From contig CAZCSJ010000003.1 in NCBI GenBank assembly GCA_964501445.1, positions 1-51,230 on the forward strand: a DNA stretch of 51,230 nt. Reading direction: 5' to 3'. Numbering within the stretch: position 1 is the first letter of the stretch; each line of letters begins with the position of its first letter. A program made the translations under genes and the position numbers. The DNA comes from an uncultured Candidatus Saccharibacteria bacterium (GTDB taxonomy: Bacteria > Patescibacteriota > Minisyncoccia > Sungbacterales > HO2-52-23). The notes under the pieces were generated by a model that was given only the letters and a program-made list of their open reading frames with translations, had not been told where the DNA came from and searched no databases. Of this stretch, positions 3,256 through 25,112 are shown one piece after another.

Positions 3256-3313
3256 CTGGAGTCCGCGGTTTCTTGAGGTTTCTTTCGGGGGTGATACCCG
3301 CTATACTTAACTC

Positions 3314-4576
3314 ATGCGTATCGTTGCTGATCTCCATATCCACTCGCCCTATTCCCGCGCCGTGTCAAAAGATATGACGCTTGAAAATTTGGATACGTGG
3401 GCGCGCCTCAAGGGAATTACGGTTATGGGCACGGGCGATTTCACGCATCCCGCGTGGATAAAAGAAATCAAATCAAAGTTGGAACCCGCGGAGCAGGGGC
3501 TTTATAGAATCAAGAAGCAAGTAGTAAGTAGTAAGGACGACGCGACGAGATTTTTACTCACGGTAGAGATTTCAAGTATCTATTCCAAAGGCGGGAAAAC
3601 GCGGCGGGTGCACAATCTCTTTTTCTTTCCGTCCATTGAGTCGGCAGAGAAGTTTAATGGTCAGCTTGCATGGCAAGGGAATTTGAAGTCCGACGGACGG
3701 CCCATTCTCGGTATTGACTCAAAACAGCTTGCCAAAATCGCGCTTGATGTTGATGCGCGCGCGATGGTGATTCCGGCGCACGCGTGGACCCCATGGTTTT
3801 CGGTATTTGGCTCCATGTCCGGCTTTGATTCGCTTGAGGAGTGTTTTGACGAATATGCGAAATATATTTATGCAATTGAAACCGGACTTTCCAGTGATCC
3901 TGCGATGAACTGGCGGCTCTCAAAACTGGATAACATCGGCATCATCTCAAACTCCGATTCCCACTCGCTCCAAAAAATCGGCAGAGAAGCAAATGTGTTT
4001 GATACGGACCTTTCATACAACGGGATTATGGACGCAATAAAATCGCATGACCCCAAGCAATTTCTTTTCACCATTGAGTTTTACCCGGAAGAAGGGAAAT
4101 ATCATTATGACGGCCATCGGAATTGCAATTTTTCCTGCGGCCCCGAGGAGACAAAGCGCCTCAAGAAAATTTGTCCGAAGTGCGGAAAACCAATGACGGT
4201 CGGCGTGATGTTTCGCGTGGATGAGCTCGCAGACCGTCCCGTGGGCGCGAAGTCGCCACATGCGATTCCGTTTAAGAGTTTGGTGCCGCTTAATGAAATC
4301 ATCGCGGAGAGTTTTGGCGTCGGCACCGCATCAAAAAAAGTAAAAGAGGAGTATATGCGCATTGTTGAAAAGCTCGGAAGCGAGTTCGCGACGCTCGTGG
4401 ATGCCTCAAAATCCGATTTGGAGCGCGCGACCGTGCCAGAGGTGGTGGAGGGAATTATGCGCGTGCGCGAAGGTCGACTCCACATAGAACCCGGATTTGA
4501 CGGCGAATACGGCAAAGTAAAAATTTTTGAAGATGACGAGCGGCGCGAGATTACAAAACAAGTGAGTTTATTTTGA
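3314..4576 (+). CDS. Endonuclease Q (EndoQ)-like PHP-domain protein
   Basis: 420-aa ORF. The N-terminus MRIVADLHIHSPYSRAVSKDMT...GTGDFTHP is a PHP metal-binding motif as in archaeal/Bacillus EndoQ. A C-terminal Zn-ribbon is present (CPKCGKPMTVGVMFRVDEL). The length matches EndoQ. Confidence 0.7.
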   Translation: MRIVADLHIHSPYSRAVSKDMTLENLDTWARLKGITVMGTGDFTHPAWIKEIKSKLEPAEQGLYRIKKQVVSSKDDATRFLLTVEISSIYSKGGKTRRVHNLFFFPSIESAEKFNGQLAWQGNLKSDGRPILGIDSKQLAKIALDVDARAMVIPAHAWTPWFSVFGSMSGFDSLEECFDEYAKYIYAIETGLSSDPAMNWRLSKLDNIGIISNSDSHSLQKIGREANVFDTDLSYNGIMDAIKSHDPKQFLFTIEFYPEEGKYHYDGHRNCNFSCGPEETKRLKKICPKCGKPMTVGVMFRVDELADRPVGAKSPHAIPFKSLVPLNEIIAESFGVGTASKKVKEEYMRIVEKLGSEFATLVDASKSDLERATVPEVVEGIMRVREGRLHIEPGFDGEYGKVKIFEDDERREITKQVSLF

Positions 4577-4597: not shown

Positions 4598-5809
4598 ATG
4601 CGCGAACACTTTCCTCAACCGGAAGAAATTCCGGAAGAGAATAAAACCACTCCCAGGAAAACCGTAAAGGAAAAAGCACTGGAAGGTATTAAAAGAACGA
4701 TACTCGTCGGCATGTTGGCATTTACCGAGTGCGGCGCTGATATTGAAAAGCCTTCGTCGTCCGTTACGGTTACGGTAGAACAGGAACCTATTGTTGACTC
4801 GCCGGAAGCCTTCATGTATCGGGAGGATGTAAGAGTTTATCCGCCGCGTATGGAAGTGGAAGCGTCAGAGAATTATAAGAAGGTTATCCGGATGATAGAC
4901 GGCTTTTCAAAAGAAGATTTGCGTACGGTCTCGCTCTCACCCTCCGATGTCGCTCAAGTAAAAAAAATTATCCATCATGCGTTTGTGCAGGACAAAAAGA
5001 CAGGCGAGAGTATGATGGTATTTAACCCCAACCTTCTCCTTGGGGGTCTCCATGTGTATTTTGCCTACGATGACGCCGTCTGGTCTCTTAAGAAGGAGGC
5101 GGGAAAGGACCGTTTTGTCTTATCCAAAGAGCAGGCGGCCGCGGCGATACAAGAGGGCCTGCGCCGTTTTACCATGCTCACATCCGTAGAAACCACAATG
5201 GAATCCCGCAAAGAAAAGGCAAATATGATTTGCCGCCCTTTCCTCATACGGGAGTTCACCTTTGAGGGTGTTACAAAAAGGAGCGCGGGGGGTGTATATC
5301 TCCGCCATCAAAAGAGGTATAACGGTTCTTTAGGAAACTACATCCGTGTAGACGCCGGCAAGTTGCCGAAGATGAATGTGGGTCTTAATCCCGTAGAGTT
5401 CAAGCTCTCGTTACCGCCAAAATTGGCGTATCGCGTGAATAGCAAATCTCTCTCTGCTGTTGTGCAACACGAGCTCGTGCATCTGTTTTCGTTCCTCCCG
5501 CATTTCCCCAAAACCCAACCCGATATAATGTATGCGGCATTTAATATCTCATTGCGTCTTCCTCCTCCGTCCGGGATACCCGGGCGACCCCCCCAATCCA
5601 TTTCGCCGTTTACAGAAAACATCAACGACCTCAAAGTACTGCGGTCCGTAGATGAAAAAACCGTACAGGTCGTTTTCAATGGCAAACCGATAGACAAAAT
5701 AGAGGGGGACTCCGATAGTTTTAAATTTATAGGGCTCCAAAAGCTCATGGCGCAAAAAGCATACGGCGGTTTAAGTTACAGTACCGTTGCGGGTCAGGGG
5801 GGGGTATAG
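4598..5809 (+). CDS. Hypothetical protein with HExxH motif (putative metallopeptidase)
   Basis: 403-aa ORF in an operon-like position. It has a hydrophobic segment near the N-terminus (ILVGMLAFTECG) and a single HELVH motif (VVQHELVHLF). No other family was recognised. Confidence 0.55.
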   Translation: MREHFPQPEEIPEENKTTPRKTVKEKALEGIKRTILVGMLAFTECGADIEKPSSSVTVTVEQEPIVDSPEAFMYREDVRVYPPRMEVEASENYKKVIRMIDGFSKEDLRTVSLSPSDVAQVKKIIHHAFVQDKKTGESMMVFNPNLLLGGLHVYFAYDDAVWSLKKEAGKDRFVLSKEQAAAAIQEGLRRFTMLTSVETTMESRKEKANMICRPFLIREFTFEGVTKRSAGGVYLRHQKRYNGSLGNYIRVDAGKLPKMNVGLNPVEFKLSLPPKLAYRVNSKSLSAVVQHELVHLFSFLPHFPKTQPDIMYAAFNISLRLPPPSGIPGRPPQSISPFTENINDLKVLRSVDEKTVQVVFNGKPIDKIEGDSDSFKFIGLQKLMAQKAYGGLSYSTVAGQGGV

Positions 5810-14866: not shown

Positions 14867-15325
14867 TTATTTCTTTTTTACAAGTACCGTCTGAAATCCC
14901 CGCGGGAACTTTTTTGGCGGCGCTTCAAGCGCGAATTCCGTCTGGATTATATCAAGAAACGCCTTGAATTTTTTTAACGCGAGGTCGCCATGCGCTTTTT
15001 CGCGTCCGCGGAGCCGCATCTCCACGCGCACCTTATCGCCCTTTTCAAGAAATCCTTGTACTTTCTCTGCGGTGCGTTTAAGGTCGTGCGCGCCGGTGGT
15101 AAATCCGATGCGCACCCCTTTGATCCCGACCTCTTTTTGTTTCTTCCCGTGTTCGCGCTCGCCTTTTTCGCGGTCGTATTTGAACTTTCCAAAGCCCATT
15201 ATTTTGCAGACCGGGGGACGCGCCGTTGCGGAGATTTCAATGAGGTCAAGTCCGCGTTCTCGCGCGATACGGAGCGCTTCAGCGGTTTCAAGAACGCCGA
15301 GATTCTTTCCCGTTTCGTCGATCAC
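14867..15325 (-). CDS. infC: Translation initiation factor IF-3
   Basis: 152-aa ORF from GTG with IF-3 N- and C-domain sequence (VIDETGKNLGV...; KVRVEMRLRGRE). The conserved IF-3 N-terminus (RYRINQYIRLSPVRV) continues upstream in frame with no ATG/GTG/TTG. The true start is therefore probably ATC (15356-15358) or ATT (15386-15388). Confidence 0.9.
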   Translation of the reverse strand: MIDETGKNLGVLETAEALRIARERGLDLIEISATARPPVCKIMGFGKFKYDREKGEREHGKKQKEVGIKGVRIGFTTGAHDLKRTAEKVQGFLEKGDKVRVEMRLRGREKAHGDLALKKFKAFLDIIQTEFALEAPPKKFPRGFQTVLVKKK

Positions 15326-15403
15326 GCGTACGGGTGAGAGGCGGATATACTGATTGATGCGGTATCGTTTTTGGATAGGATTGAAAATTAGGAATGGTAA
15401 CGG

Positions 15404-15769
15404 GGTGGAGGTGGGGAGATTTGAACTCCCGTCCGAATCGCTTCCTCCATGCCATTTCTACAAGCGTATCCCGAATCCGCCAGCTGGCGGACGGGAAAGG
15501 ATGTTTGATAGGCGTCGCGATCCGTATCAAACAGTCAGAATCGCCAAGCTCGATGTATGACACCGGTTATTTCCCATACGAGCGTGAGGAAGCCGATGGT
15601 CCGACGTGACGTCGGACAGAACCGATTTACGCTACTGCAAATGCAGGTCGCGCAGTCGGCATAGAGAATACGTTTGCACGTATGTGATGCGCGGTGTTGA
15701 TAAGGAAGGTGTCGCGCCCCTCCCGCTTGATGGTGTGGATTCTGTAATCCGTCGAGGCCTGTCACCCCC
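15404..15769 (-). ncRNA. ssrA: tmRNA (SsrA)
   Basis: On the minus strand the 5' end reads GGGGGUGACAGGCCUCGACGG and the 3' end reads GGACGGGAGUUCAAAUCUCCCCACCUCCA-CC. This gives a 7-bp acceptor stem with G3:U and a T-arm. The tag ORF is GCA AAC GUA UUC UCU AUG CCG ACU GCG CGA CCU GCA UUU GCA GUA GCG UAA, giving ANVFSMPTARPAFAVA. It is directly downstream of smpB. Confidence 0.85.
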
Positions 15770-16208
15770 GTTTCAATGTGCGCGCGATTTCGCGTTTTGC
15801 TTCGCGTTTTTTAATGACCTCGCGCTTATCCGTTTTCTTTTTGTGGCGCGCGAGGCCGATCAAAATCTTCACGAAACCCCGCTTACTATACACTTTGAGC
15901 GGGATGATTGTCAAACCTTTTGTCGCGGATTTTCCGATGAGCTCTTTGAGTTCTGCTCTCTTCAAAAGGAGCCGGCGCGAGCGCGTAGGGTCATAGCCCG
16001 CGGGCGTGTTTTTTGCCTGATACGGCGAGATGGCGGCGTTAAGCAACCATGCCTCATTTCTACGTATTACCACATAACTTCCGACGAGGGTGATGCGTCC
16101 GTTTTTTACCGCTTTCACCTCAAAACCCAAAAGTGAAATCCCCGCCTCGTATGTTTCAAGGATTTCGTAGTCAAAGTAGGCGCGTTTGTTGGAGGCGAAG
16201 TCGGACAC
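15762..16208 (-). CDS. smpB: SsrA-binding protein SmpB
   Basis: 148-aa ORF with typical SmpB sequence (NKRAYFDYEILETYEAGISLLGFEVK...LLLKRAELKEL...). It is adjacent to the tmRNA. Confidence 0.95.
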   Translation of the reverse strand: MSDFASNKRAYFDYEILETYEAGISLLGFEVKAVKNGRITLVGSYVVIRRNEAWLLNAAISPYQAKNTPAGYDPTRSRRLLLKRAELKELIGKSATKGLTIIPLKVYSKRGFVKILIGLARHKKKTDKREVIKKREAKREIARTLKRG

Positions 16209-16217
16209 GCAAAACAG

Positions 16218-16505
16218 TTAGCGATAGGTGTCTTCGCGGCGTAGACCGCAACGCGAGAGGAGTACTATGTGATTTGCGACATCATAGCGAAAACGAAAGC
16301 GACCCAATGCGAGTCGCCATTGACCATCACCGTGTGGTACTCCCTCCAGTTTCTTGATGTGGTAATTGTGGATGCGGTTATGCGGATCAGTTGCAAGGAT
16401 AGCGCGCGCCTGATTGAGGGTTGATCGGAATTCCGGGTGATGTTTTATGAGTTTGATAGCCAGCCGCTCGAATCGTGGAGTGGTAGTAATAGTGAAATCA
16501 GACAT
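16218..16505 (-). CDS. Type II toxin, RelE/ParE superfamily
   Basis: 95-aa product from the internal ATG (MSDFTITTTPRFERL...). The C-terminal signature is WRLALGRFRFRYDVANHIVLLSRCGLRREDTY. It overlaps the upstream antitoxin by 8 nt. Confidence 0.75.
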   Translation of the reverse strand: MSDFTITTTPRFERLAIKLIKHHPEFRSTLNQARAILATDPHNRIHNYHIKKLEGVPHGDGQWRLALGRFRFRYDVANHIVLLSRCGLRREDTYR

Positions 16506-16800
16506 TATTTTTTGATGGAAGCCGCAGGGGTACCTTTGTTTTCCTCGTATCGAGCTCTTTGAAAAATTCCTCAATAGGTCGGCTTTTACCTGCAAGATGT
16601 TCTTGATAGCTTTGTCGAATCTCCATTTGTATCTTCGGGTCTTGAATTTCCAAGTAGTCCTCAAATTCATCAATATCCATAATACCGACAATGGGGATGC
16701 CGTCTTTTTCCAGAATCACGTACTCTTTGTTGAGATGTATTTTTTTCACGACCGCGCCAAGATTGATTCGCGCTTTCGTGATGGGGAGGGTTTTGATCAT
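16498..16800 (-). CDS. Type II antitoxin, Phd/YefM family
   Basis: 100-aa ORF MIKTLPITKARINLGAVVKKIHLNKEYVILEKDGIPIVGIMDIDEFEDY has a Phd/YefM N-domain. It sits directly upstream of the RelE-like toxin and overlaps it. Confidence 0.8.
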   Translation of the reverse strand: MIKTLPITKARINLGAVVKKIHLNKEYVILEKDGIPIVGIMDIDEFEDYLEIQDPKIQMEIRQSYQEHLAGKSRPIEEFFKELDTRKTKVPLRLPSKNNV

Positions 16801-16904
16801 GGTGTGTAGTGTTAATTAATGTTGATTGATTTGAGTATAGCGAATGGAGTATACGCGGTCAAGCGGCATCCTCACTCCATGAATTTGCTTTTTCTTTGGG
16901 GACG

Positions 16905-16913
16905 TGGTATAAG
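16905..16913 (+). promoter_or_regulatory. Candidate extended -10 promoter (TGgTATAAG) of the DGR target gene
   Basis: It lies 91 nt upstream of ATG 17004. A homologous TGGTATAGA sits at the same distance upstream of the paralogous module at 38707. Confidence 0.45.
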
Positions 16914-17003
16914 AAAATCCAGTTCTTGGCGTCAAAGATTCTGCAACGGGCGGAATGGGCGCAAAAAAAGTCCCGTTGAGGCGGGACGGAAAGGAGAATC
17001 GTC

Positions 17004-17648
17004 ATGGCACAGCGTGTCGAGGCGAATCTGTATGTGGAGTTGGATGGACAACTTCAGGAAATCAAGCGACAACTCCGTCAATCCTCGGGGTATCCGTTCG
17101 ACCCCGAAAAACTGAAGATCGCGCTTCAAGGAATCGTCGAGGGGCGGTTCGATAATGGCAAAGTCGCCGAGTCGATCCTCGAGTTTGTCGGCACCGTCGC
17201 CATCCAGGCTCTCCCGAAGTTTGTCGCGAAGGATAACTTCGCGCAGAACACCGGGGAAAAGGCCAAAGTAAAGATCTCCTATGTGGGGGATAATTTCAAG
17301 GCGTGGTTCGGCGACAAGATCGAGGAGCCCGTGGCGGAGCATACGCTCCGTTACGCAAAACTCTTGAAGTCTTCGGTTGATGGTCCGATCCGCGCCGAGA
17401 TCGGTGCTGATCATGAGGAGACCACTCTGGGCGCGGTTCACGCGCTCATGGGCCTCCAGCCGAACGGCGAAGATGGCGTGTTGCTAAAGAACGGCTACGC
17501 CAACATCTTCTACGTGAAGGATGTTGGCGGAACGCTCCAGGCGGTGCGCGTCGGCTGGGACGATGACGGTTGGAACGTCAGTGCCAGCTCCGTCACGAAT
17601 CCGGGTGGGTGGGGTGACGGGTACCAGGTTTTCTCTCGCAATTCCTAG
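17004..17648 (+). CDS. DGR variable (target) protein, probable C-type-lectin-fold ligand-binding protein
   Basis: 214-aa ORF. The last ~37 codons (LQAVRVGWDDDGWNVSASSVTNPGGWGDGYQVFSRNS) are the VR matching the TR at 17991-18100. The first ~52 aa are paralogous to the ORF at 38707. Confidence 0.85.
   Translation: MAQRVEANLYVELDGQLQEIKRQLRQSSGYPFDPEKLKIALQGIVEGRFDNGKVAESILEFVGTVAIQALPKFVAKDNFAQNTGEKAKVKISYVGDNFKAWFGDKIEEPVAEHTLRYAKLLKSSVDGPIRAEIGADHEETTLGAVHALMGLQPNGEDGVLLKNGYANIFYVKDVGGTLQAVRVGWDDDGWNVSASSVTNPGGWGDGYQVFSRNS
17534..17643 (+). repeat. DGR variable repeat (VR)
   Basis: 110 nt align without gaps to the TR. Of 16 mismatches, 14 lie where the TR has adenine. Confidence 0.9.
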
Positions 17649-17990
17649 GATCTCTGGGTTTTGGATTCTTTGAGTCTGATCCCTTTGACCCTTTTATTCT
17701 TTGTCCCTTGGCTCACGCCCGGGGACATTTGTATTTATGACAAATTTTAAAAAGATTGATAAGATGTATATGGATCCGTAAGATACGGAGCGGCTACGGC
17801 TTCTCCGACATGGGTCTGGAATACTTTTCGCCGGAGTTACAGCGGATACGTCTTCTGTAAGAGTGTGATACGTATTTCAAAAAAACACAGGAATTGGTAC
17901 CGGCTGCTGGTGGGCTTTGATGCCCCACATACGATACAGCCCCACGAGTATTCAAGGGGCAGTGGCATAGATGGCTTTCGGTACGAGAGT

Positions 17991-18100
17991 GCTCCAGGCG
18001 GTGAACGTCAACTGGAACGATGACGGTTGGAACGTCAATGCCAACTCCGTCACGAATCCGAATGAGTGGAATGACGGTAACCAGGTTTTCTCTCGAAACT
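17991..18100 (+). repeat. DGR template repeat (TR)
   Basis: This is the non-coding copy of the VR, rich in AAC/AAT codons (gtg aac gtc aac tgg aac ... aat gcc aac ... aat ccg aat gag tgg aat gac ggt aac). The overlapping ORF at 17971-18231 is judged spurious. Confidence 0.9.
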
Positions 18101-18109
18101 GCTGTATTT

Positions 18110-18140
18110 CTCCCGCTCTACCGAGCGGGAGTTTTGTTTT
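18110..18140 (+). terminator. Hairpin plus T-tract immediately after the TR, overlapping the avd stop codon
   Basis: ctcccgctc-tacc-gagcgggag followed by ttttgtttt. The loop contains the complement of the avd TAG stop. Confidence 0.6.
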
Positions 18141-18465
18141 CAATACCCTTTATCCACCCGCCGAGCATCTTGCCGATTTCGTTCAGCGCTTCCGAGATTT
18201 GCGTATATTTTTTAGTATCGAGAGTTTTTAATTCCCACGCCACCTGCAGAAAGAATTTTAATATATCTAGTTTGCCGTTTGCTTTTTGTAGTATGGGAAG
18301 CTTCTGTTCTTTGGACAGGTAGCTTGCGATAAAGAGAAGTTCTATTGTGTCGAGAAAAAGATTTTCAATTTTTGCCCCGATCGTGAATCGGGATTGCTTT
18401 GGGATGTGATTACGGAATACGTGCCATAGCTTGTATGCTGAAATAAATTTCTGAATAATAGGCAA
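18118..18465 (-). CDS. avd: Four-helix-bundle protein, DGR accessory variability determinant (Avd)-like
   Basis: 115-aa ORF resembling the 23S-rRNA-IVS / Avd family (...LDILKFFLQVAWELKTLDTKKYTQISEALNEIGKMLGGWIKG). It lies between the TR and the RT but on the opposite strand. Confidence 0.75.
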   Translation of the reverse strand: MPIIQKFISAYKLWHVFRNHIPKQSRFTIGAKIENLFLDTIELLFIASYLSKEQKLPILQKANGKLDILKFFLQVAWELKTLDTKKYTQISEALNEIGKMLGGWIKGIENKTPAR

Positions 18466-18500
18466 AACTCCCGAGGGGGGGGCTTAGATGAAGCGTTATT

Positions 18501-19499
18501 ATGAAATTGCAATTGAGCCATACGTTCGAAGATATTGTTAAAGTTGAAAATCTCTTGGAGGCATGGAGGGAATTTGTCCGCGGGAAACGGAGCAAGCGCG
18601 ATGTCCAAGAGTTTTCCTTTTCGTTAATGGATAGTATTTTCGCGCTTCACGGTGATCTCCGAAATCATACCTACTCCCACGGGCTGTATCAAGGGTTTTC
18701 AATCCATGACCCGAAGCCGAGGAGTATCCACAAAGCCACGGTACGCGACCGGCTTTTACATCACGCCATCTATCGGGCGCTGTATCCGTTTTTTGACAGG
18801 ACGTTTATCGAAGATTCGTATTCATGTAGGGTCAGGAAAGGAACCCACAAAGCAATGGCGTGTTTCAGGGAGTTTGGCTATCGGGTCAGTAAAAACAATA
18901 CGAAAACCTGCTGGGTGCTCAAATGTGACATCAAAAAGTTTTTTGCAAGTATTGACCAGGCGGTACTCCTCGAAATCCTCGGGCAGTATATTCCGGATAA
19001 AAAGATACTTTTGCTCCTGGATCGGGTGATCGGCAGTTTCGAGAGTACTGCTCCGGGCAAGGGTTTACCGCTTGGTAATCTCACCTCGCAACTTCTCGTG
19101 AATATCTACATGAATGAATTTGACCAGTTTGCGAAGCACACTCTGAAAGCCCGGCAGTATATCCGCTACGCGGATGACTTTGTGATTTTTTCGGAAGATA
19201 AAGAGCGGCTGGAAGAGTTGATACCGAGAATTGAGGAGTTTCTCGGAAGTCATCTGCGCCTCCGTCTTCATCCCGACAAGGTTTTTATCAAAACCTTTGC
19301 CTCGGGAGTGGACTTTCTCGGATGGGTGCATTTTCCGGATCATCGGGTGCTGCGCACCGCCACAAAACGGAGAATGATGAAAAAACTGGAGCAGTCGAAT
19401 TTACCCGAGACCCTTCAATCCTATTTGGGTTTATTGGGCCATGGAAATACCTATAAAATAAGGAAACAAATAGGGCGTGATTTTTCAGTTACTCTATGA
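18501..19499 (+). CDS. DGR reverse transcriptase
   Basis: 332-aa ORF with RT motifs (KPRSIHKATVRDRLLHHA; SYSCRVRKGTHKA), the DGR-typical motif-4 LPLGNLTSQLLVNIYMNEFD and the catalytic box YIRYADDFVIF. Confidence 0.9.
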   Translation: MKLQLSHTFEDIVKVENLLEAWREFVRGKRSKRDVQEFSFSLMDSIFALHGDLRNHTYSHGLYQGFSIHDPKPRSIHKATVRDRLLHHAIYRALYPFFDRTFIEDSYSCRVRKGTHKAMACFREFGYRVSKNNTKTCWVLKCDIKKFFASIDQAVLLEILGQYIPDKKILLLLDRVIGSFESTAPGKGLPLGNLTSQLLVNIYMNEFDQFAKHTLKARQYIRYADDFVIFSEDKERLEELIPRIEEFLGSHLRLRLHPDKVFIKTFASGVDFLGWVHFPDHRVLRTATKRRMMKKLEQSNLPETLQSYLGLLGHGNTYKIRKQIGRDFSVTL

Positions 19500-19511
19500 T
19501 ACTATTGTTCC

Positions 19512-21323
19512 ATGTTTCGCCTAAAATTACGAGAGGCAATCAAGGGGGCAATAAAAGAAAAATTCAGGAATATTGAATCTCCTGATTTTTCGGTGGAGGT
19601 GCCGGAAAACTCCGCGCATGGCGATTATGCCACGAACGTCGCGATGGTGCTGGCAAAGGTATTGAAAAAGCCGCCGATGGCGATCGCGGAGGCGATTGCA
19701 CGGGGATTAGGAAGTCCTTCGACGGGCTCGGGAGATAATGGTAGCCCTTCGACGAGCTCAGGGCATATTACACGGGTGGAGGTTGTGGCGCCCGGGTTTA
19801 TTAATTTTACCGTCAGCGATGAAGCATTACTGCAGGCGCTACAAGACGTAGTGGCACATCCGGAAAAGTGGGGGAAATCGGATGTCGGGAAAAGCAAGAA
19901 GGTTATCGTTGAGTATTTTCAGTTGAATATCGCAAAGCGGCCGCATGTGGGGCATTTGCGTTCTGCAGTAATTGGCGATGCGCTCAAGCGTATGCTTCGC
20001 GCGGAAGGGTACAACGCCATTTCCGACACCCATGTGGGAGATTGGGGCACGCAGTTCGGGATTTTGCTTTTGCAATATAGAGAGGAAGGAGAGCCGGCAA
20101 TAAACGAGCAAGACCCTTTTGATGAACTGGAAAAAATATACCAACGAGGCGCCCAGCGCGCCGAGGCAGATACCGAGTGGCGCGAGAAGGCAAAAGGAGA
20201 ATTTGCAAAACTTGAGAAAGGGGATACAGAAAGGAGAAAGATATGGCAGTGGATGGTGGATGTGTCCATGAAAAAATTGGAAGAAAGCGCGGAGCGCCTC
20301 GGGCTTCTCCCATTTGACGAGCATCGCGGCGAGAGCGCGTATGAAGACGCGATGCCGCCGATTATAGATGAGGCATTACAAAAAGGCGTTGCGAAAAAAA
20401 ATGAGGACGGATCGGTGGTCGTGGATCTCTCGGAGGATGCGCTTGATGAAGCGGTATTGATAAAGTCCGATGGCGCAACGACGTATCTGCTCCGCGATCT
20501 TGCGGCGTTGAAATATCGCACGTCGCATCACGAATTTTTTGAGAATCTCTATGTGGTGGATGTGCGCCAAACCCATCATTTCCGGCAGGTGTTTCGGGTT
20601 GCGGAACTGCTCGGGTGGCGCGGTGTATCGGGAAGTCGTCACATCGCATTCGGATTTATGACGCTTCCTGAAGGCCCCATGAGCACGCGCAAAGGCACGG
20701 CGATTTCGCTTGATGCGGTGTTGGATGAAGCGGAGAGGCGCGCACGCGCAATAATTCAAGAAAAGAATCCGGAACTTGCGAATAGAGAAGAAGTCGCCCA
20801 AATGGTGGGTCTCGGCGCGCTGAAGTACTTTGACCTCTCACACAACAGAAAATCTGATATAGTATTTGATTGGGACCGCGCGCTCGCGTTTGAGGGAAAT
20901 ACAGGGCCTTATCTTCAGTATACGCACGCACGTCTCCGGAGTATTTTAAGAAAAGTAAATCCTTCGACAAGCTCAGGAAATATCTCCGGAGAGAAATCAA
21001 CAAGAGGAAATATCTCCCGAGCGAAGTCGAGGGACAACCTACAAGCGAGCGAATTGGATCCGCTTGAGCACCACATTGCGGCTTCAATCCTCCGTTTTCC
21101 CGAAGCAATTGAAGATACGTTGAAAGAGTACTTTCCGAATGTCCTTGTAAATTATTTATACCACCTCGCGCAGGTAGCAAATGAGTTTTACCACTCCCAT
21201 CCCGTGATGCAGGAGGAAGACGCAAAAAAACGCGCGGTGCGCGTGGCATTGGTGTCGGCCGCGGCAACAACGCTCAAAAATGGTTTAGGACTTCTCGGCA
21301 TTGAGGCGCCGGAGGAAATGTGA
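19512..21323 (+). CDS. argS: Arginine--tRNA ligase
   Basis: 603-aa ORF with an ArgRS N-domain (GDYATNVAM), the HIGH-region variant (AKRPHVGHLRSAVIGD) and a DALR anticodon-binding C-terminus. It contains two repeat-derived insertions. Confidence 0.93.
   Translation: MFRLKLREAIKGAIKEKFRNIESPDFSVEVPENSAHGDYATNVAMVLAKVLKKPPMAIAEAIARGLGSPSTGSGDNGSPSTSSGHITRVEVVAPGFINFTVSDEALLQALQDVVAHPEKWGKSDVGKSKKVIVEYFQLNIAKRPHVGHLRSAVIGDALKRMLRAEGYNAISDTHVGDWGTQFGILLLQYREEGEPAINEQDPFDELEKIYQRGAQRAEADTEWREKAKGEFAKLEKGDTERRKIWQWMVDVSMKKLEESAERLGLLPFDEHRGESAYEDAMPPIIDEALQKGVAKKNEDGSVVVDLSEDALDEAVLIKSDGATTYLLRDLAALKYRTSHHEFFENLYVVDVRQTHHFRQVFRVAELLGWRGVSGSRHIAFGFMTLPEGPMSTRKGTAISLDAVLDEAERRARAIIQEKNPELANREEVAQMVGLGALKYFDLSHNRKSDIVFDWDRALAFEGNTGPYLQYTHARLRSILRKVNPSTSSGNISGEKSTRGNISRAKSRDNLQASELDPLEHHIAASILRFPEAIEDTLKEYFPNVLVNYLYHLAQVANEFYHSHPVMQEEDAKKRAVRVALVSAAATTLKNGLGLLGIEAPEEM
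19716..19763 (+). repeat. Tandem CCTTCGACGRGCTCRGG arms, in frame in argS
   Basis: ccttcgacgggctcggg...cccttcgacgagctcaggg encodes SPSTGSGDNGSPSTSSG, inside the ArgRS N-terminal domain. Confidence 0.7.
20961..21033 (+). repeat. Palindromic CCTTCGACAAGCTCAGG...CGAGCGAAGTCGAGGG element, in frame in argS
   Basis: It encodes PSTSSGNISGEKSTRGNISRAKSRD. It has imperfect inverted arms and an internal direct repeat (ggaaatatctcc, twice). Confidence 0.75.
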
Positions 21324-21416: not shown

Positions 21417-24400
21417 ATGTCTAACGAAAAAACAAAATTTAATCTCCCTCAGGAGGAAGAGAAAATCCTGAAATTCTGGGAAGAACAGAGAGTTTTTGAG
21501 AAAACCCTTGCGCAAAAGAAAGGGCAGAAGACGTTTGTATTTTATGAGGGGCCGCCCACGGCAAACGGCCTTCCCGGGCTTCACCACATGCTCGCGCGGT
21601 CGTTCAAAGACATCATCTGCCGCTACAAAACCATGCGGGGTTTTTATGTCCCGCGCCGCGCGGGTTGGGACACGCACGGGCTTCCGGTGGAAATTGAAGT
21701 GGAGAAACAGCTCGGGTTCAAAACAAAGCAGGATATTGAGCGCTACGGCATCGGGAAGTTCAATCAGAAAGCAAAAGAATCGGTATGGAAGTATAAAAAC
21801 GAGTGGGAGCAATTTACCCGACGGATGGGGTTTTGGATTGATTTACAGAATCCCTATATCACATATGAAACATCATATATAGAAACCCTTTGGTGGATTA
21901 TCAAAGAATTTTGGAAGAAGAAATTGCTCGTCCGCGATTTTAAATCCGTGCCATGGTGTCCGCGCTGTATGACAGGGCTCTCAAGCCACGAAGTGGGGCA
22001 GGGCTACAAGCGCGTGAAAGATGCATCGGTATATGTGAAATTGAAAATTAAGGGAAAAGAGAATGAATATCTTTTGGTGTGGACGACTACTCCATGGACG
22101 CTTCCGGCAAATGTTGCGGTCGTGGTAAATCCCGGAATTGAATACACGAAATTCAAAGTGGGAGACCAGTATCTCTGGTCCAGCCGGCCGATTGCAGGAG
22201 AGTGGGACGCAAAGATCGCGGTCGCGGAGCGGGCATCGGGCAAAACGCTTGTAGGTATTGAGTACGAGCCGCTCTACCGCGTGCCAAGAGAGTATTCTCT
22301 TGGAATTGAGCCGCCCTATCGGGTATTTCCCGCGGATTTCGTGTCCGTGGAGGACGGCACGGGATTTGTGCATATTGCCCCTGCGTTCGGAGAAGATGAT
22401 TTGAATTTGATGAAATCTGTTTATGCACGTCACCCTGAACGCAATGGTCATCCTGAATCCTTCGATGGTCATTCTGATCCGCCAGCTGGCGGAGAAGAAT
22501 CTCAGGATAAACTCCGTGAAGGATCTCGGGATCCTTCGGCCTCGCCTCAGGATGACGATATGCCTCGGGATGATGGACGCCACTTCTTGTATCCCATTCT
22601 CCAAACCGTCAACCCCGACGGCACAATGAAAAGAGGAGTCATCGGCGAAGGGAAGTTCGTCAAGGAGGCGGATAAGGATATTGTCGCAGATTTGAGGAGC
22701 CGCCACCTGCTCTATAAGGAAGAGCAGTATGAACACGAGTATCCGTTTTGCTGGCGGTGTGCGACCCCGCTCCTCTACATGGCGCGCGAGGCGTGGTGGG
22801 TAAAAACGACAAAAGTAAAATCCGCGTTGCTGAAAAACAATGACACCATCAACTGGATCCCGGCGCATGTAGGGCGCGGGAGATTTGGCGAGTTTTTGCG
22901 CGAGAATCGCGACTGGGCGTTTTCCCGCGAGCGGTACTGGGGAACTCCGCTTCCCATTTGGGAGTGCGGGAAGTGTGGAGAACGCGATGTTATCGGATCG
23001 CGCGAGGAACTTGCGGCACGCGCGGCGCATCCCCACAACCGCTACCTCATCATGCGTCACGGCGAGTCGGAAAATAATGTGAAGGGAATTTTAAATTTTT
23101 CCATTGCAAAAAACCATTGGCATTTGACACTTCGCGGGAGAACGCAGGTAGAAAAAGCAGTAAAAGCGCTTCAGAAACAGAGCGTTGATGTGATTCTCAC
23201 TTCTGATTTTCTCCGCGCAAAAGAAACCGCGGATATCATGGGACGCACATTTAAAGTTCCCGTGCGCACTGATGCGCGGCTGCGGGAAGTTGAGGATCGC
23301 GCGTTTGACGGCAAGACCGTGAAAGAGTATGGCGACTGTTTTGTTTTTCACGGCGCACGGTTTCGTTCAGAAATGCTCGGCCTTGAGCCAATGGCGCACC
23401 TCCGCGCGCGCGTGCTTGCCGTAGTTCGCGATTGTGAAAAGAAATATAAAGGAAAGACGATTCTTCTCGTGAGCCATGATTATCCGCTCTGGATGCTTAC
23501 CGCGGGCGCGGAGGGGCTCACGGATGAGGAGACGATTTTGCGCCACAGCGGCAAATGCACAGAACATTTTCTGCCCAATGCCGGAGTGGAGGAGTTGGAG
23601 TATCGCGTGCTCCCGCGCGATGAGACCGGCGCGGTGAATCTCCATAAGCCGTATGTGGATGACGTTACGTTTTCCTGCGAGAAGTGTAAAGGTACGATGC
23701 GCCGCGTGCCGGAAGTGGCGGATGTCTGGTTTGATCCAGGAAGTATGCCGTTTGCCCAGGCACATTTCCCATTCCGGCAAAATCGTCATCCTGAGAGAGC
23801 GAAGCGAACGAAGGATCTTGAGATTCTTCTCCGCCAGTTGTCGGATCAGAATGACAATGGCTATTATTTTCCCGCCGATTACATCTCTGAAGCCGTAGAT
23901 CAAACCCGCGGGTGGTTTTATACGCTCCTTGCCGTTGCGACACTCCTCGGGAAAAAGGCGCCCTATAAAAACGTGATTTCGCTTGGCCATGTGCTGGATA
24001 AAAATGGTCAGAAAATGTCCAAGTCCAAAGGCAATGTCGTGGATCCCAACGAAATGATGGGGAAATACGGCGCAGATGCGCTCCGCTGGTATTTTTACAC
24101 CGTGAACGCCCCGGGAGAGGCGAAACATTTTGACGAAAAAGATGTGGCAGGGAAGCTCCGCGGATTTCTGATGACGCTTTGGAATAGTTTTCTCCTCTTT
24201 GATACTTATGTGAAGAAATCTACAACCTACAACCTACAACCTAAAACCTTGTATATCCTTGACCGCTGGATTCTCACGCGGCTCGATATGCTGGTTGCCG
24301 ATGCAACCAAGAAACTTGATGCGTATGACATCACGGGCGCTGCGCGCGCGATTGAAGAGTTTCTTATTAATGATTTTTCTCAGTGGTATCTGCAGCTTTC

Positions 24401-25112
24401 GCGCCGCCGCCTCCAGCGCCCCCGCTCGCGCGCTGAAAAAGAAGAAGTTACGCGTACCACCGGGGAGGTGCTCTTCACATTGTGTGTGCTTACCGCGCCC
24501 TTTGCGCCATTTTTCGCGGAGGTCATGTACCAGCGTCTTCGCAAAAAAATGGGGCTGAAAGACGCGAGTGTGCATCTCGCGGCGTGGCCAAAACAAGAAT
24601 CAAGAAGCAAGAATCAAGAATTAAAGGTTTTGAAGGATATGGACATGATACGGGCGGCGGTTGCCGAGGGTCTGCGGCTTCGCGCAGAGGCGGGTATTAA
24701 AGTGCGTCAGCCCCTCCGGCGTTTTTCCACCGTACTCCCCAAAACGCATGCGCGCGCGGCAGAACAGATTCTCCGCGAACGGCTCAATGTGAAGGAAGTG
24801 GTGTGTGGCGCAAAAAAATCTGCGTTGGATACAACCATCACGCCGGAGCTCCGTGAAGAAGGAATCGTGCGCGAGGTCATCCGCAACATCCAGGAGATGC
24901 GCCGCGACCTCGGGTTGACACCTCGCACAGAGATCAGGGTGCAAGGAGTGGGGCCTGCCGCGCTCACCGTGCTTTTGATTCGCGAAAAACGGGAGATTCT
25001 AAAAGAGGCAGGCGCGCGCGAGGTGACCGCAGGAGGAAAGAAAGTCTTTGACGCGGAGCGGGAGATTCCCATTGACGGAGAAATTCTTTGGCTTGGCATC
25101 CGGCGCGTGTGA
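21417..25112 (+). CDS. ileS: Isoleucine--tRNA ligase with an embedded histidine-phosphatase-like domain
   Basis: 1231-aa ORF with HIGH region (PPTANGLPGLHHM), CP1 editing domain (WTTTPWTLPAN; GTGFVHIAPAFGEDD), KMSKS (QKMSKSKGN) and Zn-finger CXXC motifs. It also has about 200 extra aa with an RHGE motif and two repeat-derived insertions. Confidence 0.93.
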   Translation: MSNEKTKFNLPQEEEKILKFWEEQRVFEKTLAQKKGQKTFVFYEGPPTANGLPGLHHMLARSFKDIICRYKTMRGFYVPRRAGWDTHGLPVEIEVEKQLGFKTKQDIERYGIGKFNQKAKESVWKYKNEWEQFTRRMGFWIDLQNPYITYETSYIETLWWIIKEFWKKKLLVRDFKSVPWCPRCMTGLSSHEVGQGYKRVKDASVYVKLKIKGKENEYLLVWTTTPWTLPANVAVVVNPGIEYTKFKVGDQYLWSSRPIAGEWDAKIAVAERASGKTLVGIEYEPLYRVPREYSLGIEPPYRVFPADFVSVEDGTGFVHIAPAFGEDDLNLMKSVYARHPERNGHPESFDGHSDPPAGGEESQDKLREGSRDPSASPQDDDMPRDDGRHFLYPILQTVNPDGTMKRGVIGEGKFVKEADKDIVADLRSRHLLYKEEQYEHEYPFCWRCATPLLYMAREAWWVKTTKVKSALLKNNDTINWIPAHVGRGRFGEFLRENRDWAFSRERYWGTPLPIWECGKCGERDVIGSREELAARAAHPHNRYLIMRHGESENNVKGILNFSIAKNHWHLTLRGRTQVEKAVKALQKQSVDVILTSDFLRAKETADIMGRTFKVPVRTDARLREVEDRAFDGKTVKEYGDCFVFHGARFRSEMLGLEPMAHLRARVLAVVRDCEKKYKGKTILLVSHDYPLWMLTAGAEGLTDEETILRHSGKCTEHFLPNAGVEELEYRVLPRDETGAVNLHKPYVDDVTFSCEKCKGTMRRVPEVADVWFDPGSMPFAQAHFPFRQNRHPERAKRTKDLEILLRQLSDQNDNGYYFPADYISEAVDQTRGWFYTLLAVATLLGKKAPYKNVISLGHVLDKNGQKMSKSKGNVVDPNEMMGKYGADALRWYFYTVNAPGEAKHFDEKDVAGKLRGFLMTLWNSFLLFDTYVKKSTTYNLQPKTLYILDRWILTRLDMLVADATKKLDAYDITGAARAIEEFLINDFSQWYLQLSRRRLQRPRSRAEKEEVTRTTGEVLFTLCVLTAPFAPFFAEVMYQRLRKKMGLKDASVHLAAWPKQESRSKNQELKVLKDMDMIRAAVAEGLRLRAEAGIKVRQPLRRFSTVLPKTHARAAEQILRERLNVKEVVCGAKKSALDTTITPELREEGIVREVIRNIQEMRRDLGLTPRTEIRVQGVGPAALTVLLIREKREILKEAGAREVTAGGKKVFDAEREIPIDGEILWLGIRRV
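22429..22579 (+). repeat. Composite nested palindromic insertion (GTCAYCCTGA...TCAGGATGAC family), in frame in ileS
   Basis: There are three left arms (gtcaccctgaac, gtcatcctgaat, gtcattctgatc). The central palindromes are tccgccagctggcgga and gaaggatctcgggatccttc. There are three right arms (ctcaggataa, ctcaggatgac, ctcgggatgatggac). It encodes HPERNGHPESFDGHSDPPAGGEESQDKLREGSRDPSASPQDDDMPRDDG. Confidence 0.8.
23035..23630 (+). other. Histidine phosphatase (phosphoglycerate-mutase-like) domain inserted in IleRS
   Basis: NRYLIMRHGESENNVKG...LTSDFLRAKETA...REVEDRAFDG...ILLVSHDYPL carries the RHG catalytic motif and the downstream SH motif. It is flanked by the IleRS blocks IGSREEL and NLHKPYVDDV. 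Confidence 0.7.
23785..23855 (+). repeat. Palindromic GTCATCCTGAG...TCAGAATGAC element, in frame in ileS
   Basis: gtcatcctgagagagcgaagcgaacgaaggatcttgagattcttctccgccagttgtcggatcagaatgac encodes HPERAKRTKDLEILLRQLSDQND, just before the conserved PADYISEAVDQTRGWFY block. Confidence 0.8.

Follow-up and report, generated by a model that had tools for sequence, protein, structure and literature searches.

A complete diversity-generating retroelement of the Patescibacteria type with a conserved structured RNA ahead of its template repeat

Contig CAZCSJ010000003.1 (assembly GCA_964501445.1, from an uncultured Candidatus Saccharibacteria bacterium) was analyzed over positions 1 to 51,230, and this whole stretch is called the window below. 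Between positions 17,004 and 19,499 lies what is very probably a complete chromosomal diversity-generating retroelement (DGR) of the type seen in Patescibacteria, the candidate phyla radiation (CPR). Its parts are a target gene that ends in a variable repeat (VR), a template repeat (TR), an inverted avd gene and a reverse transcriptase (RT) gene, all of them present and intact in the window. The element is taken to be chromosomal because the flanking genes of the window are housekeeping genes (those of IF-3, tmRNA, SmpB, ArgRS, and IleRS). A sequence-only reading had proposed a complete DGR with the adenine-specific signature of mutagenic retrohoming in a CPR-type genome, and the TR/VR bias, the RT, the Avd protein, and the related loci all agree with that proposal. 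Thousands of DGRs have been catalogued in CPR bacteria and the present element is an ordinary one, a further member of a known CPR class, and little is changed by this locus alone. The order is target/VR (+), spacer, TR (+), avd (−), RT (+), with the parts as follows; IMH is the initiation of mutagenic homing site and IMH* its counterpart in the TR.

17004-17648, + strand: target (variable-protein) gene, 214 aa, with the VR at its 3' end
17534-17643, + strand: VR, the last 110 nt of the target coding region, aligned to the TR without gaps
17991-18100, + strand: TR, 110 nt with 30 adenines, 3' end (IMH*) ...CAGGTTTTCTCTCG-AAAC-TGC
18118-18465, − strand: avd, 115 aa, opposite in orientation to both TR and RT gene
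18501-19499, + strand: DGR RT, 332 aa, with LGNLTSQ and YADD (Pfam RVT_1)

The TR/VR pair was examined in two ways. A repeat finder gave a single long direct repeat in positions 16000-20500 (17534-17646 with 17991-18103, 85% identical and 457 nt apart). Base-by-base comparison of the two 110-nt segments gave 16 mismatches and no gaps, in exact agreement with the hand alignment made earlier, including its division into 14 mismatches at TR adenines (12 A>G, 1 A>T, and 1 A>C) and two at other bases (T>G at 17621 and C>T at 17642). By a hypergeometric calculation, 14 or more of 16 mismatches would fall on the 30 adenines of a 110-nt sequence with a probability of 6.8e-8. The TR had also been described as loaded with AAC and AAT codons in the VR frame; ten such codons are found in its transferable part, and every strongly variable codon is AAC or AAT in the TR. 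The VR replaces most of these TR asparagine codons to give N>R, G, D, S, S, G, G, and Y. Together with seven codons that contain a single A, the ten AAY codons give a coding capacity of about 1e16 protein variants, with no stop codon reachable. The T>G change at 17621 (GGT>GGG) is synonymous, and a simple point mutation or a mistake of the RT could account for it. When the TR was slid along both strands of the 51-kb window and only its non-A positions were counted, no second VR-like copy was found. Note that the TR can also be read as a spurious 86-aa open reading frame (ORF) at 17971-18231 (…NVNWNDDGWNVNANSV…), which has been called as a gene (1064-1324) in L201, and that TR-derived "proteins" such as P0013 are present in the protein database.

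For comparison 80 related loci were taken from species-representative genomes; they carry L numbers here where they must be told apart. Most bear the names of Patescibacteria groups (e.g., Paceibacteria, Saccharibacteria as labelled, Taylorbacteria, Vogelbacteria, and Doudnabacteria). About 38 of the 80 share the order target (+), ~340 nt, TR (+), avd (−), RT (+), and all the related loci that are complete have their avd on the minus strand. In nearly every locus, that of the window included, the TR ends in ...TTCTCYCG-AAAC and the VR in ...TTCTCYCG-CAAT. Two of the window's mismatches, A>C at 17639 and C>T at 17642, recur in nearly every related locus; they are differences between IMH and IMH* that are fixed across the clade rather than products of mutagenesis. 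Once these are set aside, 13 adenine-mutagenesis sites and one non-A change (17621) remain. The two ends would function as the recipient (IMH) and donor (IMH*) marks. The A of a ...CCAGG... sequence just 5' of the fixed end is mutated in several loci, which together with the fixed end difference would place the start of the complementary DNA (cDNA) within GGTTTTCTCTCG (TR 18084-18095). The features at and past the VR end are:

~17623-17646, + strand: VR-specific end (IMH), ...CAGGTTTTCTCTCG-CAAT-TCC; the mutagenized part of the VR runs to ~17622
17681-17709, + strand: degenerate tandem repeat with an 8-nt unit (consensus CCCTTTGA, ~3.6 copies), lying between VR and target terminator (a weak repeat, TRF score 30)
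17703-17726, + strand: GC-rich hairpin GTCCC...GGGAC followed by a T-rich run, from a terminator scan (stem 17706-17724); also found in relatives

Repeats of the CCYTTGRY type, in three to five copies, occupy the same place between the VR stop codon and the target terminator in many relatives (L001-L064, motif marking). The GC hairpin lies ~60 nt past the VR and is terminator-like in appearance. It is likely to be the intrinsic terminator of the target gene and is also a candidate for the DGR inverted repeat downstream of the IMH. A GC-rich inverted repeat just downstream of the IMH is found in only about a third of DGRs.

The RT ORF contains both of the motifs that had been reported for it, LGNLTSQ and YADD. 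Its best match among solved structures is the Bordetella DGR RT, bRT (8ub7, E = 1.5e-44), which aligns over residues 9-310 with IGSLTSQ placed opposite LGNLTSQ; the next solved relatives are group II intron RTs at E = 1.6e-18 or weaker. The protein also matches phrog_1423 (E = 3.6e-105). The 115-aa ORF that separates the TR from the RT gene, which had been called Avd-like, is indeed assigned to Avd by the NCBIfam DivGenRetAVD equivalog model (92.1 bits, cut-off 80), by Pfam bAvd (62.2 bits, cut-off 40), and by the PHROG family "Avd protein of DGR"; its minus-strand orientation had gone unstated. The neighbours of the RT gene are avd and aminoacyl-tRNA synthetase genes.

In the relatives the TR/VR mismatches fall almost entirely at TR adenines (e.g., 14/14, 16/16, 17/17, 21/21, and 22/22). 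Loci L001 and L003 have identical TRs (100%) and upstream target sequences that are 99% identical, and their VRs differ at 15 positions, all 15 of which are TR adenines. All 20 VR differences between L001 and L037 likewise fall at TR-adenine positions. Differences between close relatives are thus confined to the TR-adenine positions of the VR, which is direct evidence of activity in the clade. For the window's own copy the evidence of activity is the mismatch pattern itself, and this copy may be active now. About half of the related target genes lack a TR or an RT within 5 kb. Of 45 such orphan targets, 30 keep the VR-type ending CGCAAT, and the orphan targets are poor in AAY codons. Two of them were compared with a TR elsewhere in the same metagenome-assembled genome: the L018 TR and orphan target L014 differ at 20 positions, 16 of them adenines, and the L028 TR and orphan target L044 differ at 26, of which 22 are adenines. 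Since orphan targets match a TR elsewhere in the same genome, extra targets in trans seem common in this target family, which suggests that a DGR may serve several targets. No extra targets of this kind are visible in the 51-kb window.

The target protein has no signal peptide or hydrophobic segment, as read from its sequence. A single-sequence search gave 214 homologues and a profile search at least 914 clusters, all "hypothetical" and with no Pfam domain among those listed. Searches of Pfam, NCBIfam, PHROG, PADLOC, and PDB sequences gave no family or annotation match to the target. None of 58 family members matched FGE-sulfatase, DUF1566, or another lectin-type VR family in Pfam at E <= 1, and a profile search of PDB sequences with the target family returned nothing at E <= 10. 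AlphaFold models the protein with confidence (pLDDT 88 for the whole target; pLDDT 95.2 and pTM 0.90 for residues 56-214), and Foldseek searches with two confident models found no match at E <= 0.001 in the PDB or BFVD. The proposal that the target is a C-type-lectin-fold binder is not supported by these searches. The companion proposal, that the VR residues cluster on one face, fared better. In the model, variable residues 182, 184, and 186 lie on one strand and 191, 193, and 195 on the next, and 198-207 form the loop that follows. Given this alternation along two adjacent beta-strands, the residues would lie on one face, and the model fits a variable surface on which they sit together.

That the VR domain is a divergent C-type-lectin fold, and not some other fold, is a reading we entertain seriously and slightly disfavor. 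The predicted order of elements in residues 113-212 (strand, two helices, four strands) resembles that of C-type lectins and would suit a C-type-lectin-like topology. The expectation of Roux et al. 2021 (PMC8144416) is that CPR VR domains that lack annotation are new variants of the C-type lectin, and the Foldseek match of widest coverage is the human C-type lectin MCL. However, that match is at chance level (130 columns, TM 0.31-0.32, rmsd 6 Å, E = 1.5-2.6), no solved DGR variable protein is among the best 50 matches listed, and no sequence profile links the domain to any Pfam family or PDB chain. A large unannotated target family with a confident, unmatched fold bears on the question of whether DGRs diversify C-type-lectin scaffolds only.

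The spacer between the target gene and the TR contains a predicted promoter followed by a structured leader RNA that extends to the TR.

17757-17765, + strand: extended -10 promoter element TGaTAAGAT, from a promoter scan, with a predicted start at ~17772
17772-17990, + strand: structured leader RNA, seven helices, directly upstream of the TR
17772-17817, + strand: leader helix P1, inner stem 17785-17808, loop CGGCUACGGCUU
17826-17870, + strand: leader helix P2, inner stem 17837-17860, loop CGGAUACGUCUU
to 17896, + strand: A-rich single strand of the leader with an invariant AAUUGGU
17897-17908 with 17973-17984, + strand: leader helix P3, a long-range 12-bp helix that encloses P4 (17912-17925) and P5 (17939-17960) and ends 7 nt before the TR
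18110-18131, + strand: stem-loop of 9 bp with tetraloop UACC, followed by UUUUGUUUU to 18140, from a terminator scan

In 25 of 26 loci the promoter element (TGnTAnnnT) precedes helix P1 by 6-7 nt. Folding of an alignment of 23 loci with RNAalifold gave seven helices and 51 pairs, 40 of which show compensatory changes. In this fold 95.6% of the cells are paired, versus 41-50% when the partners are slid, and the covariation score is 0.603 versus 0.11-0.20; none of 500 shuffles reached the observed values. Several of the invariant pairs are G-U pairs, which indicates the + strand as the one from which the leader is read. Near-identical 12-nt loops (CGGYUACGGCUU and YGGRUAYGYCUU) cap two of the hairpins and are able to close as UACG-type tetraloops. 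The only Rfam family that the leader region resembles is RT-9 (RF03080), which aligns over its full length (1-92) at 17782-17898 with 23.8 bits versus a gathering score of 46.1. In L010 the same full-length alignment is found at the same relative position with a higher, still sub-threshold score (29.2 bits), and no related locus reaches the gathering score.

The stem-loop 3' of the TR begins 11 nt past the TR sequence CGAAA in most loci. Loop lengths vary, and hence a MAFFT alignment recovered only five pairs of this stem-loop; each sequence was therefore folded separately. The per-locus folds have 7-13 bp (mode 8) and a loop with a mode of 4 nt, with compensatory changes in the stem, and a conserved U-run (UUUU) lies 3' of the stem-loop in nearly all loci. 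The leader RNA and the post-TR stem-loop are structurally conserved. Note that the stop codon of avd, on the opposite strand, overlaps this stem-loop. Stem-loops are predicted downstream of the TR in 207 of 278 DGRs, typically with 9 bp and a tetraloop, and an Avd-binding stem-loop has been seen in the Bordetella RNA by cryo-EM (bioRxiv 10.1101/2023.10.23.563531). By analogy, the post-TR stem-loop is a candidate Avd-binding stem-loop. It is possibly also an intrinsic terminator or an attenuator.

In Bordetella all of the RT-binding elements, as well as the primer strand and stop duplex, are located downstream of the TR. Here the downstream region is antisense avd and a large conserved structure lies upstream, and a template RNA rearranged relative to that of Bordetella is therefore likely. 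No candidate considered for a primer strand or priming site was convincing. The G tract before the RT gene was a frequent best partner of the TR 3' end, but a run of G pairs with any pyrimidine-rich segment, and non-G partners showed no consistent covariation. The best partner in the window, UCGAGAG at 18217-18223, is not conserved. Priming of the cDNA by pairing of the U-run with the TR AAAC gained no support, as loci with CAAT in the TR show no matching change in the U-run.

A more radical version of this rearrangement is possible, although we consider it somewhat doubtful: the stem-loop and U-run would be a true terminator and the template RNA a discrete, permuted molecule of ~370 nt (17772 to ~18140), with the protein-binding elements upstream of the TR. 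Such an RNA would have its own promoter and a structured leader, the hairpin with its U-run is kept in nearly all loci, and beyond the hairpin there is only antisense avd. Moreover, RT-9 was separately described as an RNA motif near RT genes (PMC5737381). However, no + strand promoter for the RT gene was found between 18140 and 18500, the Bordetella RNA past the Avd-binding stem-loop is essential (it holds the primer strand, the stop duplex, and an RT-binding stem), and no equivalent primer strand was identified upstream of the TR. The U-run is also constrained by the C-terminal Avd codons on the other strand.

Under the DGR reading the element would operate as follows. The promoter at 17757-17765 would start an RNA at ~17772 that consists of the seven-helix leader, the 110-nt TR, and the 9-bp stem-loop with its U-run. 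RT and Avd would bind this template RNA, copy the TR to cDNA, and misincorporate opposite adenines, and this cDNA would take the place of the VR, which forms the 3' end of the gene for the 214-aa target. Transfer would be limited at the 3' side by the shared ...TTCTCTCG segment, beyond which AAAC in the TR and CAAT in the VR would mark donor and recipient. In this scheme we infer the RNA ends, the assignment of RNA elements to proteins, the priming site, and a ligand for the target. The seven-helix RNA provides a concrete model of the template RNA for the inverted-avd DGRs that dominate CPR genomes and may give RT-9, an orphan motif of Rfam, a function.

In the window, avd and the RT gene have divergent start codons 35 nt apart, and a second feature shared with the relatives lies between them.

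18475-18482, + strand: G8 homopolymer

Most related DGR loci have a run of G8-G11 in an avd/RT gap of 20-60 nt, always G on the RT strand, and three loci have (TC)17, (GA)12, or (GT)10 in its place. Examples of tract coordinates are L001 6422-6429, L003 5864-5874, L015 3936-3969, L028 6333-6356, and L049 6303-6322. In ~700 kb of fetched loci nearly all such tracts were at the avd/RT gap. Metagenome sequences with identical flanks of 13 nt and 6 nt have tracts of 8, 9, 10, and 11. Loci L166, L191, and L090 have G10, G8, and G9, respectively, although the ~260 nt on either side of the tract show an identity of at least 99.6%. Such tract lengths may reflect the behavior of a hypermutable contingency repeat; homopolymer sequencing error could also produce them. 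Contingency repeats are found between divergent fimbrial genes in Haemophilus and, as poly-G tracts, in Neisseria and Campylobacter. The avd/RT tract shares with these loci a long G or dinucleotide repeat between divergent start codons and a length that varies between identical flanks. It differs in that its G residues invariably lie on the RT strand, a bias that would also suit a role at the RNA level, and the tract may be either a phase-variation switch or an RNA element. Frameshift switching by a poly-C tract inside the avd frame was considered and set aside as unproven, as most loci have no canonical start codon upstream. Five nucleotides 3' of the window's G tract an ATG opens a 17-codon ORF (18488-18541) that overlaps the RT start codon in another frame; it was not conserved among the relatives looked at. 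Literature searches gave no link between such repeats and DGRs, and no description of a folded RNA ahead of a DGR template or of an unstable G-run.

If the repeat acts as a switch that turns avd and RT expression on and off, the target would be diversified only in a changing subset of cells, and it suggests a testable way for cells to limit the cost of hypermutation. The full combination, in which the DGRs of this clade are randomly switched by the avd/RT repeat, use a permuted RT-9-like template RNA, and diversify a non-lectin variable domain, seems to us unlikely to hold in all its parts.

Several observations count against an element that works as proposed. The only other contig that encodes the same target protein, from the assembly of run SRR8863434, is 100% identical over 2436 nt, and a search of metagenome contigs for VR variants, with every A of the TR given as N, gave 0 matches. 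The T>G at 17621 stands outside the adenine pattern. If the terminator-like stem-loop and U-run are functional, the RT gene would need read-through or a promoter of its own, and the promoter scan of 18140-18500 gave none on the + strand. Duplex folding over ~30 loci did not locate a primer strand that pairs with the TR 3' end, and the target model has, among the best 50 matches listed, no PDB match to the C-type-lectin variable proteins of DGRs, such as Mtd, TvpA, TaqVP, and AvpA.

Some of these points could be read as the marks of a fossil, in which a duplication that has since decayed left TR and VR, and RT and Avd have stopped acting on them. The sole other contig of the window locus is identical, the locus has one non-A mismatch, and many related targets have no TR or RT nearby. 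We nevertheless regard a fossil as very improbable. Ordinary decay would not concentrate so many of the 16 differences (13-14) at TR adenines (P = 7e-8). YADD and LGNLTSQ are retained in the RT, Avd is full length, and every RNA helix is intact. Near-identical relatives differ only at TR-adenine positions, and the orphan targets, which still have a VR-type end, resemble a TR of the same genome with most differences at adenines (16/20 and 22/26). That the RT instead belongs to a group II intron, retron, or defence-associated RT system, the repeat being incidental, can be dismissed: the top NCBIfam model is indeed a group II intron RT/maturase and PADLOC lists many DRT and CRISPR-associated RT models, but all matches, including those to other NCBIfam retron and Drt/DRT models, are far below their cut-offs (141.5 bits vs 300 for the group II model; e.g., 74 vs 200 and 60 vs 235 for the others), the Bordetella DGR RT (8ub7) is the best solved relative by 26 orders of magnitude in E-value, so that by similarity scores the RT does not group with those RTs, Rfam detects neither group II intron nor retron RNA in the window, and Avd and an adenine-biased TR/VR pair are present.

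The DGR reading also agrees with known systems. Most DGRs have an Avd, and the VR of a DGR is usually 3'-terminal in its gene and faces TR adenines at codon positions 1 and 2 (AAY), as is the case here. The prototype, the Bordetella phage BPP-1 DGR (mtd-avd-TR-brt), shares full-length RT homology with the I/LGxxxSQ and YxDD motifs, Avd, an adenine-specific TR/VR pair with the VR at the target 3' end, distinct IMH* and IMH, and a tetraloop-capped stem-loop directly 3' of the TR. In contrast to BPP-1, the avd gene here is inverted and sits between TR and RT gene, the large conserved RNA structure is upstream rather than downstream of the TR, and the GC hairpin is ~60 nt past the VR rather than adjoining it. 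The present element is also chromosomal whereas BPP-1 is phage-borne, and its small target has no detectable C-type-lectin match or resemblance to Mtd.

Of all CPR DGRs, 90% have the B3 layout, TR-(avd)-RT, which hardly occurs outside this group (Wu et al. 2018, PMC5758913). The RTs of CPR DGRs make up a separate clade, and the targets typically lack recognizable domains (Roux et al. 2021, PMC8144416). The window's element shares with this CPR B3/DGR clade 2 group the gene order, the strands, the host group, and a target without a recognizable domain or membrane segment, and nothing essential differs. In the "UVR" classes of Wu et al. (PMC5758913) the VR is likewise not assignable to a C-type-lectin or Ig fold. 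With RT-9 (RF03080) the leader shares its first hairpin, with the loop GGYUACGGCU, and a later A-rich segment, which align to positions 1-92; the leader is larger (seven helices over ~215 nt vs a 92-nt model) and its scores are sub-threshold. The RT motifs owe their definition to a location near RT genes (Weinberg et al. 2017, PMC5737381). In that work RT-10 is the TR-to-RT spacer RNA of BPP-1, and RT-9 has no assigned function or DGR link.

The region upstream of the target gene contains two further features.

15403-15769, − strand: tmRNA gene, 98 bits, tag peptide ANVFSMPTARPAFAVA
16498-16800, − strand: Phd/YefM-type antitoxin gene, Pfam 31.6 bits

The tmRNA gene lies directly 3' of smpB (15762-16208, −) with an overlap of a few bases, and infC (IF-3) then follows at 14867-15325. 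The antitoxin gene overlaps a downstream ORF (the pair spans 16218-16800, −) that is RelE/ParE-type toxin-like by eye and has no Pfam match, and this antitoxin/putative toxin pair sits immediately upstream of the DGR target. The IleRS (21417-25112, 1231 aa) has a His_Phos_1 (histidine-phosphatase) domain inserted at residues 544-706, within its catalytic domain (E = 4.7e-29). Two homopolymers unrelated to the DGR, which could be used to gauge homopolymer sequencing error, are G8 at 5797-5804, at the 3' end of a 403-aa ORF (4598-5809), and C7 at 5588-5594, inside that ORF. In the related locus L012 a LOOT RNA (Rfam RF03000, 82 bits) is found at 3307-3437, ~1.6 kb upstream of the DGR target there.

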